From contig OX597825.1 of the NCBI GenBank assembly GCA_951406725.2, positions 12,524,001-12,588,000 of the forward strand: a DNA stretch of 64,000 nt, written 5' to 3'. The position numbers and the translations under genes are program-made. The notes under the pieces are model-generated. The model had not been told where the DNA came from. It made no database searches and worked only from the letters and a program-made list of their open reading frames with translations. The stretch's first letter is position 1. The number at the start of each line of letters is the position of its first letter. This document shows, one piece after another, positions 107 to 17,527 of the stretch. Source of the stretch: Octopus vulgaris. Lineage: Eukaryota.

Positions 107-415
107 ATCGTAAACGGATTTAATTTAATTTAATTAAATTCGATTACGTAAAAACGTCGAAACTATGCATAGTACAAAGTTGAAGGGGATAAATGTTTTT
201 ATTTCTCCTTTAGTTCCAGAATTACTACTATTTTGCGGTTTGAGTTTAGCTGCCCTTTCAAGTGAGTTGAACGGCCTGCCAGGGTCATTCCTTAATACTA
301 TTGTTGAATATATTATATAGTCTGTGACTATTTCTACTTTCTCACTTGACCGCTGGTTGCAGAAACTTTTTCTTGAATTTTTCTTGAATTTTCTTTGCTA
401 CCCTTATATTGATTA
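107..415 (+). mobile_element. Penelope pLTR/retrozyme-like repeat fragment carrying the 3' half of a hammerhead (family H1)
   Basis: 200-412 matches 17310-17523; 107-145 is the reverse complement of 16878-16916; GAAA at 159-162, with palindrome ACTATGCATAGT (162-173), then A and CAAAGT. Confidence 0.7.
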
Positions 416-469
416 AAAAAATATATATGTATGTATATATGTATGTATGTGTGTACGTATGTATGTTTG

Positions 470-760
470 TGTGTAAGTCAGCAGGTATTAAAGCTTTTAG
501 TATGGAAGCCGAGCACTGGGTGCAGATGGAAAAAATCAGTCAGTTTGGAAACCATTTCAAATACGAGATTCGAAAACTTAATCATGAAACCTATACTTCA
601 GAAACTGGTATTCCAGACAGTTGTCTGACTGAAAACTTTGTAACATTTGCCGTAGCGTCTGTTTGTTACATGCTAGTCACATGAGATCTCATGATCGCAT
701 TTATTTATCGAAGAAAATCACATATATCTGTGAGGGTATTTCAATCACCATAAATAAAAG
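470..760 (+). mobile_element. Decayed 3' end of an RTE-like LINE with C-terminal C2H2 finger
   Basis: 639-692 translates CNICRSVCLLHASHMRSH (Cx2C...HxxxH); upstream frames are broken; flanked by (TATG)n. Confidence 0.45.
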
Positions 761-2430
761 TATGTATGTATGCATGCATGTATGTGTGTTTGCGTGCATG
801 TATGTATGTATGCATGTGTGTGTATGTATGTATGTATGTATGTATGTATGTATGTATGTATGTATGTATATGTGTGTGTTCTGTTCTGTTGTCACTTGAA
901 TTCTCTCTCTGAGTGAAGAAGCCGGTTTCTATGAAAGATACGAAGCTCTATCGTTGGAATGTACATAACGAAAACAGTGTTCCATTTTAATCTTGAGAAA
1001 TGTGTTGCATAGATTTACTGTTCCACTTCAAAATTGTATTTGTAATCTGCGAGATAATGAGTTGATGTGTTTTATTGACAATCCAAGTTCACCAATTATT
1101 ATCAGTATAAATTTAAATTTGTAAGGTGTATATTGATGCATGTATGTTTGTATGTTTGTATGTATGTAAGTGAAAATTATTTCCGGAATTGTATTTTTGT
1201 CTTCCTGCGTTCTTTACTTTTCACGTTTACATACTGAATATACATAGTCTACGGCAAATCACAAACACACATCTCCGAGTCATTCTATTGTTGCCACTCT
1301 TGTAAATTTAGAAAAACGATTTTATCTCCTTAAACAATAATGGCAGGAAACTGCATCAGCATTCTAATTCAAGTGTTCTCTCGTTAATTGCGGTCACTAT
1401 AAGAGAGGTTTCATCGAACAACTAGCATGCCTTCATTAAGCTAGAAATTGACAAGTCTCCACAAACGATAATTTACTCAAGAACCCTACAACGGCCATTA
1501 AATAGTAAAACAGTAAGGGCCTAGAAACTAATCCCATTTTATATATACATACGTCATTATAGATTGACATTTATTTCCTCTCCGATTGAGAGGTTCAGCG
1601 GGAAACTTGAAAGCCTTCTCTTTCCTCACCTCATAAAACTTATTCTACTAAATTATTTCCGAAGCCATTAAAGGCAATCTCTATGGTTCCTTTTATGACT
1701 ACTTGCACATCTATGTATACATCGGTGATAGACATAATCCATCACCCTCTTTAATATCAGCTCATGTTCCCCGCAGAACAGAGAACATCCTCTTTCACGT
1801 AGTCAAACCAGGTTTCCCCTTTTACATTAAACGATATATCTTCATTCAGAACTTCCTAATTCAACAAATCATATGTCTCGTTTTATTTTCCCCCGCAATT
1901 TCAACCCTGCAAATATCATGGCCACTAACACCCATACACTCCCTACTGTTTAAAATAATCTCAGCAATCGATTAATATCGTTTTCTTTCTCACTACTTGC
2001 ATTGCAATATCAATGAAAATAACTTTTTTAAAGAACCCCTGCATTAAATACGCTAACACAAATTTATTGATTTCTATGCAGATAGCATACAGTGACCTAT
2101 GAACACTTTTTATCCAGCTGTTTATTTTCATTTAATTACATGTGTCTTCCGTTCTTTGCAAGTATATACAAATTTAATTATATTTTCTGATAAATTTTGA
2201 CTTCAATTTAATAGAACACAACAATGTAAACCATTGGCAAAAATGCGTAGAGGCGCTTGAACTTGGCAAATTTCGTGGCTGATGTGAATATGGAAAATTC
2301 GATAATAAGAAAAAAGCTTAATATTTCGGTATTAATCATGAGGCACTAATTAACACAGAGAAGAATTGGACTAAAGAAAGACATTTACGAATCAGGAAAT
2401 GTTTTGGGAGGCACCAGTAAGATTAATAAG

Positions 2431-2850
2431 GACTACTTCCTTGAAAATCATATTGCAATAAGTGCTGAGAAAGGACAAAGATTCCGCCAAGACATCGGGA
2501 CCATGGTGGCTAGGTATCAAAACAGGTGGAACCACAAAGGTGATTGCTGACTCTTGCGATGCAAGTTTTTCAGGCAAACCAGCAAAGAGAACGTTCACGT
2601 CTTGGGAAACTGAAACTCCAGTTTGACAGATATATAATTCCTAAGATGTGGAATTTAACATTTTATGTAATATATGTATTAGCCTTTAATTTCAGTATTG
2701 CATTTTGTTACAAAGTGAATTTCTGTTTAACAGAAAACTTGACGTGATAGAAAAATATGTGAGCACATTTCTGAACTCAGTTCTATCAAATTAGTTAAGA
2801 CTAATTTTTTTAAAAAAAAGCAAGACAATTATAAATTTTGTTCGAAAATG
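2431..2850 (+). mobile_element. Chapaev3-like (Transib-related) DNA transposon 3' remnant
   Basis: 2431-2557 reads DYFLENHIAISAEKGQRFRQDIGTMVARYQNRWNHK/VIADSC (one frameshift), resembling the recalled motif DFFPENLGAVSDEHGERFHQDI..MEKRYQGRW...MLADYC; the 3' extent is approximate. Confidence 0.6.
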
Positions 2851-3090
2851 TTGCTCAGCTTTCATATTCAGAGAGTAAGCAGTAGAAAACAAAGCTTGAA
2901 CTAATGGGAGAAAATTGACTGATTTCGTTCTGACATCTGTGAATCAAACTCAACAGAAAGTTTGTTCGTAATTGTTCCTGTGTCTTAATGTAAACAATAG
3001 AATAGAATATGCAAGGATCTCGAATATATATACACGACATTATGGAATATATATTCTCATTACTTATTTGCACCTGCGACTATATAAACA

Positions 3091-3149
<59 letters not shown>

Positions 3150-3153
<4 letters not shown>

Positions 3154-3293
3154 AAGCAATTAAGATTCAAGTGAGTTCTTTGAATTCACATGAATATGGT
3201 ACTTAACTTGGATGCACCAGAAATCTATATGGTGTTAACCATAAGACACAGTGGGGTGATTACAAATAGGATATTGATCCATTCTTGTTGTTT

Positions 3294-3295
<2 letters not shown>
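3150..3295 (-). repeat. Interspersed repeat related to the foldback element at 11776-12035
   Basis: Reverse complement of 3190-3262 matches 11958-12030 (TAACACCATA...TTCTGGTGC...TTAAGTACCATATTCA). Confidence 0.6.
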
Positions 3296-15248: not shown

Positions 15249-15279
<31 letters not shown>

Positions 15280-15473
15280 GATATATTGTTTCGAATTTCT
15301 GTGAATGTGTATAGAAAAATATATCAGTTGAATAAAGTTAAAACATGGTCTGGTTTTCAGGTTTTTTTTGTTATGGTATTTTAACATTAAAAATATTTTT
15401 TTCCATGCTTATGAAGTTAAATTAGCGCATTTATACATAGTGTAGTCATCCAATTTGAAATGTGATTAACTGA

Positions 15474-15559
15474 CTTATAGAACCCAAAGGATTTCTCCTC
15501 AAGCAAACGTACCCTCTCCTACTTATAGAAAATAGCATACAACGAGCAAAAGAGATACG

Positions 15560-15560
<1 letters not shown>
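15474..15560 (+). mobile_element. Penelope-like retroelement RT thumb/linker coding fragment
   Basis: Translates [29 protein letters not shown], matching the recalled PLE motif RL.ELK..L..Q.YP..LI...I.RA. Confidence 0.55.
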
Positions 15561-15610
<50 letters not shown>

Positions 15611-15619
15611 ATATATATA

Positions 15620-15705
<86 letters not shown>

Positions 15706-16877
15706 TGTATGTATATATATATATATATGTGTGTGTGTATATAGATATACATATATTGAAGATTCTTAAATTGCTCAGAGATTTAGAAGAGTGCTCTTAG
15801 TTTTTCACAATACAAATGTAATCACTATAACAACAATTAGTCTATTTTAAGAATGCCTCTCTCTCTCTCTCTGATCACGTGACCAGCTCACTGCTTTCTT
15901 TTGAAATTAAACAATTTTTAAAATTTCAGTTACGTGGCATTCTCGCAGAGCATGTTCTTTACAACGGACTGAATTTCTGAACCTCAGCGAGACACGTAAA
16001 AAGTTGTTTATAGAATTGTATATAACAAAATTTATGTAAGCCACTATATAATTTTTTTTAACTTTTAGAAGAATATTGCATTCGTTGAAAAATAGTGAGT
16101 TGGGCTTATCTCAAATAATTAAAGTTAGCCGTCCATTTTGAAATTAGTTTGTCCGTGTAATGCCGTTAGAAGGATAAAGCAAGGCGTGTAATGTTAATTT
16201 AACCAGGCTAAATTGCCCCAGAGTAATCCAGCTTACTAATATTTGATCATACAATTTTCATAGGAATAAAATAAAATATTGATTTCAAAATTTGTATCAT
16301 TATTCAATCTAATCGCTTCGATCAGCGCTTTACTACTTGAATAAAATACACAAATGAAGACATTCGCACTTCATAATTCTACATCACACGACAGAAAAAA
16401 AAACACATCCCGGTTTTACACAACCTTCGCTGAGGAGCGAAAGAAGTTAGACAGTTAGAAATAGTATTTCCATATATTTACTATTTTATTGTTTTCATTT
16501 TCAGTAAATTTTGGCTTAATAGTTGAGTATTTGAACGGGCAATATCTAGCCGAAATATTCCACCTGTTTTGTGTTGAAAATGACCGGATCTGAACAGTCG
16601 AACCTACCCTACAGTGCAATTTATAAAATAAACAATCTCATAACTAACTCCACGAAGCTGTGAGAATAAATTGTCCTTACATTTGATAGAGTTATCTGAA
16701 TGATACAGGGTCAAACATTTTACTCAACATGGGTTTTTTTTTAAACGTTTTTGAAAGATCGTGGATCTGAAGTATTTTTACTCCATCCTCTAATGCTTCA
16801 TTCTACCCCACGCATTTTGTTCTGGGTAAATAGTCGAAGTCAAATACAACTGTTGAGTTCTGATTCCTGTCTCTTTA

Positions 16878-17527
16878 AATCGAACTTAATTAAATTAAAT
16901 TAAATCCGTTTACGATTGGCTTGTTTCATCAGCAAAGTCACCAAAAGAAAAGGAGAACATATACGCACGAGGCGACACCACTGAAGCCCCGAGTGTATAT
17001 ATCCTAATTTTTCGAAATCCAACATAACCGCGCCAACTACTCAGCAGCAAATATAAACTGCTGATACAATTTCAGAATTATTCAAAAATTATTAATTTAT
17101 CAATATAGGGTAGCAAAAAAATCCAAGAAAATTCAAGAAAAATTTTCTGCAACCAGTGGTCAAGTGAGAAAATAGAAATAGTCACAGACAATATAATATA
17201 TTCAAAAGTATTAAGGAATGACCCTTACAGGTCGTTCAACTCACTTGAAAAGAGCAGCCAAAACTCAAACCGCAAAAATAGTAGTAATTCTGAAAGCTAA
17301 AGGAGTTATTATTTCTCCTTTAGCTTTCAGAATTACTACTATTTTTGCGGTTTGAGTTTTGGCTGCTCTTTTCAAGTGAGTTGAACGACCTGTAAGGGTC
17401 ATTCCTTAATACTTTTGAATATATTATATTGTCTGTGACTATTTCTATTTTCTCACTTGACCGCTGGTTGCAGAAAATGTTTCTTGAATTTTTCTTGGAT
17501 TTTTTTTGCTACCCTATATTGATAAAT
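16878..17527 (-). mobile_element. Penelope pLTR/retrozyme-like element (family H1) with a ~211-bp inverted arm
   Basis: Near-perfect palindrome 17095-17305/17315-17527; the minus strand continues to ACTTTG-CTGATGA (16938-16926) and a long stem II. Confidence 0.75.

Follow-up and report, generated by a model that had tools for sequence, protein, structure and literature searches.

The closest described systems to the repeat analysed here are the non-LTR (long terminal repeat) retrozymes of animals (Cervera and de la Pena 2020, PMC7229834; Li, Clavereau and Pollet 2026, bioRxiv 10.64898/2026.07.22.740005), whose mobilisation by Penelope-like elements (PLEs) has so far been argued from co-occurrence and terminal-repeat homology. 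The PLE tail is defined by two start sites of the reverse transcriptase (RT), both target strands are cut and extended, and the enzyme is predicted to be a dimer (PMC11167929); a tail at one end together with an inverted copy is also described in a paper that proposes self-priming (PMC3846280), and a double-hammerhead model holds that ribozyme multimers cleave and monomers are protected (PMC4209133). We analysed a window of 64,000 nt (G000:C12:12524001-12588000) from the 2.8-Gb, microsatellite-rich genome of Octopus vulgaris, which holds two independent truncated insertions, copies A and B, of one non-coding repeat, belonging to different subfamilies (~10% apart). We conclude, with a probability of roughly 0.8, that this repeat is a non-LTR retrozyme with a unit of ~487 nt, likely copied into (TA)n by the RT and endonuclease (EN) of a PLE acting in trans.

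The repeat unit and its family

A first-pass annotation of the window had reported two halves of a hammerhead ribozyme, and both were found where it placed them, the 5' half on the minus strand running to 16878 and the 3' half on the plus strand from 107. The halves are not chance matches: across the genome, a degenerate 27-nt pattern built on the 3' half matches exactly at 86 places and a pattern of the repeat body at 159, compared with 0 for the reversed control of each, which puts the copy number in the low hundreds or above. Genome searches returned 54 and 46 matches, each from the 40 best candidates, and sampled only the best-scoring copies. A check for intact copies, set beforehand, found contiguous ribozymes in tandem arrays with cleavage sites 487 nt apart in natural loci. 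The annotation's proposal of a tandem or circular unit of about 490 nt that carries a single ribozyme is supported by natural periods of 487, 490, 492, 481, and 474 nt across five subfamilies.

On many chromosomes, type I hammerheads are present in intact form and the unit stands in natural tandem arrays. The locus L007 carries three ribozymes spaced 487 nt, and at least two consecutive complete motifs are present at L007/L148 (three) and at L022, L027, L049, L149, and L241 (two each); the longest array has 3.3 units. The units of sister families measure 474-492 nt: one, found via contig ends of public runs, has 31 matches, a 474-nt unit, the core CCGAUGA, and a GUC triplet, and another, of ~481 nt, was found through the body pattern. 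The monomers have 33-36% GC and are ~78-96% alike, with the five subfamilies up to ~20% apart. In five monomers read circularly on either strand, the longest open reading frame (ORF) starting with ATG has 21-45 codons; like a retrozyme, the repeat is non-coding and has no LTR. The fold of one monomer scored better than those of all 100 shuffled versions (z -3.4). Many contigs of the X14 run, which carries another organism code (organism C), cover the unit, so the family is probably shared with a related species. In runs that may be RNA, contig depth over the unit is low and patchy, and one of these runs also covers some flank; these assembled contigs reveal neither ends nor circles and carry no weight for or against expression.

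Several further loci were recorded during these searches. A local segmental duplication at G000:C22:41642000-41657000 (L121/L122) holds three copies of one retrozyme insertion; the three same-strand matches there (2.9 and 5.5 kb apart) were considered as pseudo-LTRs of an autonomous element and rejected, since they reflect the duplication and enclose no PLE ORF. At L050:526-640, ~1 kb from a retrozyme insertion, there is one more hammerhead-like motif, again with a long stem II. Another long-stem-II hammerhead repeat, arranged head-to-head, was seen at L200:2206-2860 and L221 and resembles the L257 terminal repeat; a piece similar to it stands at the 5' end of the Hydra-type PLE copy at L238.

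Insertion anatomy

Removal of 42 duplicate loci by hand left 90 insertions with 138 outer 3' ends. With unit positions (m) counted from the predicted cleavage site, these ends fall mostly at two fixed sites, S1 (61 ends; m124-161, mostly 145) and S2 (66 ends; m228-262, mostly 241), and 11 lie elsewhere. The two sites are ~+135-145 and ~+235-245 past the cleavage site and ~96 nt apart; the 5' ends are scattered. In stricter alignments of both families, 120 of 164 arms cross a cleavage site, in a sample that the searches had enriched for such arms. Among the 48 head-to-head insertions, 39 combine S1 with S2, one has S1 at both ends, none has S2 at both ends, and 8, including copy B, have a non-standard end. 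The excess of mixed ends (39/40) is significant against an expectation of 0.5 (p 3.7e-11) and of 0.65 (p 7e-7), the latter added because the first search favoured S2 arms. In a sister family (25 loci), all 7 callable pairs were mixed and two were not callable. Five short inverted stubs, read by eye, stand outside the 39/40 count; a regular expression flagged none of them.

In the same alignments, (TA)4 lies no more than 30 nt away from 154 of the 166 ends at S1 or S2. The 59 inversion junctions comprise 11 blunt joins, 22 with 1-6 shared bases, 2 with longer overlaps, and 24 with extra bases. Neither arm is always contained in the other (compare L008 with L003); therefore, fold-back of a single cDNA cannot make all head-to-head copies, and we infer that two priming events are needed for them. 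The arms within an insertion differ by 1.9%, compared with a median of 5.6% to other insertions; arm differences that are polymorphic in the family were set aside, many of them recurring at few positions and several being C/T or G/A. A 6-bp hairpin is predicted just 3' of S1 in the minimum-free-energy folds of two of three monomers, at a level not above shuffles, and it is absent from the Hydra context. The one-end tail, the inverted 5' copy, and the AT-rich target all belong to the known insertion anatomy of PLEs. Target-primed reverse transcription is indicated by the dispersal of short copies, by their fixed 3' but variable 5' ends, and by the head-to-head arms.

The hammerhead ribozyme

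The ribozyme was tallied in 114 de-duplicated loci, a few rows being junction artefacts, and 79 of them gave 97 motif matches. The core reads CUGANGA in 74 motifs, CCGAUGA (a U4C variant) in 20, and otherwise in 3; N17 is A in 77 and C in 20. Compensatory pairs were found at I.1, I.6, II.1-II.4, III.3, and III.4, so that all three stems covary, with stem I open-ended. Stem I pairs switch from G-C to A-U and from A-U to U-A, all four base pairs of stem II switch, and pairs 3 and 4 of stem III show four and three pairing types, respectively, while the 12-mer stays near-palindromic. Most of the double changes divide sister families, which leaves few independent covariation events. That every stem shows compensatory changes indicates selection at the RNA level. 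All 97 motifs have U1.7, for which a Hoogsteen contact to loop 2 has been proposed (PMC11875169). Stem II carries an extension of ~60 nt, and stem III is a 12-nt palindrome (4 bp and a tetraloop). Ribozyme activity is a prediction, and the palindromic stem III is predicted to favour cleavage of dimers. A search of an intact copy against Rfam gave no hammerhead family among 11 matches at E up to 10, likely because of the long stem II.

A satellite or other DNA-level repeat, spread by recombination and carrying a vestigial ribozyme, is a very improbable account of these data. The segmental duplication on C22 did multiply one insertion; however, the insertion anatomy described above points to target-primed reverse transcription, and the compensatory changes bespeak selection acting on an RNA.

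The two copies in the window

Copy A (subfamily a) occupies 107..416 on the plus strand, is 5'-truncated in stem II (m420), crosses the cleavage site, and ends at S2 (m240), where it adjoins a TA/TATG microsatellite. Its hammerhead 3' half (159..181, +; type I, assigned from sequence and the family tally) contains GAAA at 159-162, the palindromic stem III 12-mer at 162-173, the GUA triplet at 172-174 with cleavage predicted at 174/175, the 3' strand of stem I at 175-180, and U1.7 at 181. The proximal site S1 (m132-145, AT-rich) lies inside the copy at 306..319 (+). Copy A matches subfamily a at 288/301 positions and subfamily b at 277/300.

Copy B belongs to subfamily b (415/427 identities, compared with 391/422 to subfamily a). 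Its long arm, 16878..17305 on the minus strand, runs from m~30 to m458 without a standard 3' end and includes the hammerhead 5' half (16878..16938, -), made up of the 5' strand of stem I (16938-16933), CUGAUGA (16932-16926), and part of the long stem II, in which the copy stops at 16878. There it is joined to single-copy DNA, the flank at 16780-16900 having one match in the genome; a contig of the X15 run spans 15800-16907 and thus reaches only 30 letters into the element, so that support for this blunt end from a second sample is borderline. The ribozyme 5' half of copy B had been annotated correctly, but its inverted, head-to-head arm at 17309..17527 (+), from m~26 to S2 (m241) and followed by (TA)n, had gone unmentioned. 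The two arms form an inverted repeat (I3) of 191 nt that is 96% complementary.

The repeat unit and ribozyme obtained by joining the halves are real, yet the halves come from subfamilies a and b; their 39-nt overlap has 38 identities, and the body matches at 89-90%, but joining them literally gives stem II an A.C mismatch at its base, which natural copies lack. The supposed split hammerhead is thus two unrelated truncations rather than one broken element. An inversion breaking one element was rejected, since copies A and B are of different subfamilies and each has an end at S2.

A search of the window against Rfam gave no gathering-score match among the 150 of 234 matches shown, which were of microRNA type and driven by microsatellites. 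The window also contains a compact hammerhead-like motif at 30009 (-), with U3-A8, a 5-bp stem I, a GC-rich stem II, and a palindromic loop 3, and, at 3277-3348 beside (TA)n, a 72-nt stretch that matches the 3' end of L236, a Hydra-type element, at 90%. A dispersed family in short tandems of ~183-190-nt units (3865-4100, 4909-5333, 9042-9645, 21352-21783, 42786-43348, and 60361-60712) is unrelated to the retrozyme.

Circular or linear template

A variant that departs from the preferred explanation in the template step alone holds that the template was never circular: linear multimers transcribed from short arrays, some of them cleaved by the ribozyme, would be copied, and arrays would be rebuilt by template jumps. 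The 5' ends are mildly enriched after the cleavage site, as this variant expects (14 observed at m1-12 vs 5.8 expected, P 0.003), in a window picked after seeing the data and with fold-back pairs counted twice; at m1-3, the figures are 4 vs 1.4 (P 0.06). Ribozyme cleavage was also dispensable for insertion of an Anolis PLE in vitro (PMC11167929). On the other hand, no long master array was found among the 86 exact matches, yet a 3.3-unit insertion exists, and 5' truncation alone would shorten arrays in each cycle. Tandem units within an insertion share private alleles (3/4095 vs 24/518440 in controls), but in 2 of 28 insertions, and related retrozymes have been shown to accumulate as circles (PMC7229834). 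DNA cannot decide between circle and multimer, because a ligated junction equals a genomic tandem junction. We regard a purely linear template as a serious possibility, somewhat short of even odds, and a circle among the templates as somewhat better than an even chance.

Candidate PLE partners

PLEs proved abundant in GIY-YIG searches of the genome. They were assigned to the Hydra type by the RWK/RWR, DKT, and CxCx5C motifs of PMC8557442 and to the Neptune type by a CxxC-type linker. Hydra-type PLEs carry long-stem-II hammerheads and have two ends, near +37 and +153, which were mixed in 6 of 7 callable inverted copies. Two Neptune-type families have two ends ~40 nt apart in (TA)n, mixed in 4 of 4 callable inverted copies; in one of them, the short end lies ~136 nt past a predicted minimal hammerhead, close to S1. 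The candidate partner is a Neptune- or Hydra-type PLE of this genome. At one hybrid locus (L045/L272), a retrozyme arm ending at S1 is joined, through 3 nt of microhomology, to a 5'-truncated arm of this latter Neptune family at its long end; the arms are 98.7% (retrozyme) and 97.8-99.0% (Neptune) identical to relatives and so of similar ages.

The copies could instead be 5'-truncated stumps of the 3' tail end (pseudo-LTR) of an autonomous PLE, with no independent unit. Such stumps would share the one-end tail, inverted 5' copy, and (TA)n target of PLEs (PMC8557442), the Hydra-type PLEs bear hammerheads of the same long-stem-II type, and the sample comprised only the best-scoring copies. Against it, long copies (to 1,582 nt) return to their own unit upstream of the ribozyme and never to an ORF, and the five subfamilies have all kept a 474-492-nt unit despite their divergence. 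When 25 PLE ORFs were compared with the de-duplicated loci by tblastn, ORF pieces were found in 8, none of them directly upstream and in line with an arm. The RT and GIY-YIG ORF that autonomous EN-bearing (EN+) PLEs carry between pseudo-LTRs was not found in the retrozyme, and we consider the stump explanation unlikely.

The hybrid locus lies at G000:C13:22936000-22945900 (L272; the same as L045/L046) and also on the small contig C57; its Neptune-type PLE is young. At L249:176-1374 (-), a sister-family piece ending at S2 meets a 5'-truncated, GC-rich PLE ORF in the same direction without a TA spacer, possibly through a template switch. Several Hydra-clade subfamilies (L232, L236, L257, L267, and related loci) have ORFs of 778-1091 aa with asparagine-rich inserts, and in some of their hammerheads the core is CCGAAGA and stem II is enlarged by an insert of ~100 nt or more. 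In a young Neptune-type family (L181:1406-5090 and 5080-6170), a 781-aa ORF recurs in many identical copies; a separate ORF of 359 aa lies upstream, and U3-A8 takes the place of C3-G8 in a possible variant hammerhead.

Proposed mechanism

Under the retrozyme explanation, multimeric transcripts would cleave themselves, probably with two ribozymes paired by the palindromic stem III into a double hammerhead, a lone monomer being mostly inactive, and either an uncleaved multimer or a ligated circle would serve as template. A PLE protein, probably a dimer, would cut both strands of (TA)n, and each DNA end would prime reverse transcription at a different internal site (S1 or S2), aided by short AU/TA pairing. 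Joining of the two cDNAs at their 3' ends would give head-to-head arms, and a single cDNA joined to the far flank would give a single arm. In its most specific form, a two-headed Penelope enzyme reads circular ribozyme RNA, and its subunits must start at different fixed sites across the cut (TA)n; we offer this tentatively, as doubtful but worth stating. If it is true, twin priming would explain the inverted repeats and one-sided tails of PLEs in general, and the hybrid with Neptune would directly record the use of an identified PLE by a retrozyme.

Several observations weigh against the retrozyme explanation or parts of it. Private alleles common to both arms number 7/4296 (in 6 of 37 insertions) vs 24/518440 in same-subfamily controls, with four complex loci left out; this suggests one template or source locus, or may reflect later gene conversion, and it sits awkwardly with a hybrid made from two templates. 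In folding predictions for five natural monomer contexts, the active form is less stable than the minimum by 2.5-7.9 kcal/mol, with a stem III probability of at most 0.05; the 12-mer self-duplex is predicted at -15 to -19 kcal/mol, and together these values fit the double-hammerhead model. In Xenopus, only one of nine predicted retrozyme dimers cleaved (bioRxiv 2026.07.22.740005), and in the Anolis element, the two strands showed no difference in the use of RT start sites (PMC11167929). The hybrid is a single case, its Neptune tail measures 37 nt vs ~96 nt in the retrozyme, and PLE fragments also adjoin other retrozyme insertions within the same microsatellite, so it could have arisen by chance adjacency and deletion. 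Its Neptune end context resembles the monomer no better than shuffles do (152-253/300).

As to a source element, BLAST against 30, 20, 38, and 20 PLE loci gave short AT-rich matches only, so that no autonomous PLE bearing a homologous repeat at its termini came to light, and the terminal regions of Hydra elements gave alignment scores within the shuffled range. One pair, a sister family and L238, reached 1/200 shuffles over a stretch that is not a terminal repeat. A local resemblance (57 nt) of the distal end of Hydra-type L236 to S1 was matched by 0, 3, and 16 of 300 shuffles for three monomers, and a second Hydra subfamily by 56-270/300, in 12 tests in all with the window chosen by eye.

Significance and comparison with known systems

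The family is a retrozyme family of an ordinary, already known class, distinguished by a ribozyme with a long stem II and by PLE-type insertion signatures of unusual clarity. The insertions themselves carry these signatures, and a tiny non-coding template allows the two-site rule to be counted (39/40). An RNA of 490 nt whose two mapped start sites lie 96 nt from each other, together with young intact Neptune and Hydra ORFs of the same genome, would make a compact in vitro system for the inverted repeats and tails of PLEs. Long-stem-II hammerheads escape Rfam models, and such families are probably under-counted. The literature search found no paper on this family and no count of the one-site-per-arm rule, although an earlier annotation in supplements or Repbase is possible.

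Compared with the relevant parts of the reports on non-LTR retrozymes, the repeat shares a non-coding, low-GC unit, one type I hammerhead, dimers or multimers alongside dispersed copies, and coexisting PLEs. Its unit of 474-492 nt exceeds the 170-400 nt of PMC7229834 and falls within the 51-972 bp of bioRxiv 2026.07.22.740005. In contrast, the ~60-nt stem II extension and the 4-bp palindromic stem III depart from the published descriptions, and the two fixed 3' ends and head-to-head arms are undescribed in the consulted parts of those papers. The retrozymes of the 2026 preprint share terminal-repeat homology with PLEs, whereas here no homologous terminal repeat was found among the PLE loci compared, a sample of the PLE families, and the family is known from DNA alone.

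Type I hammerheads that cleave as dimers, described from repeats of newt, schistosome, and PLEs (PMC4209133), have the same 6-bp stem I, 4-bp stem II base, and palindromic stem III/loop 3, but here stem III is longer (4 bp and a tetraloop) and a long hairpin replaces loop 2. With EN+ PLEs, as portrayed in PMC8557442, PMC11167929, and PMC3846280, the repeat has in common partial tandems, an inverted 5'-truncated copy, a one-end tail, an AT-rich or (TA)n target, and two RT start sites downstream of the hammerhead. It differs from them in having no RT or GIY-YIG ORF and a tail of ~96 nt rather than 30-40 nt; its ends also lie in AU-rich RNA able to pair with (TA)n, whereas the Anolis element is described as starting at a site without homology to the target. 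The Hydra-clade PLEs L232 and L236 likewise have a long-stem-II hammerhead, a palindromic stem III, GUA, (TA)n, and two ends ~115-120 nt apart, one per arm; unlike the retrozyme, they are autonomous (ORF ~980-1090 aa), end at ~+37/+153, and have no overall DNA homology to it. At the level of its DNA, the repeat fits the definition of a non-LTR retrozyme and not that of an autonomous PLE, while its insertions follow the pattern of a PLE.

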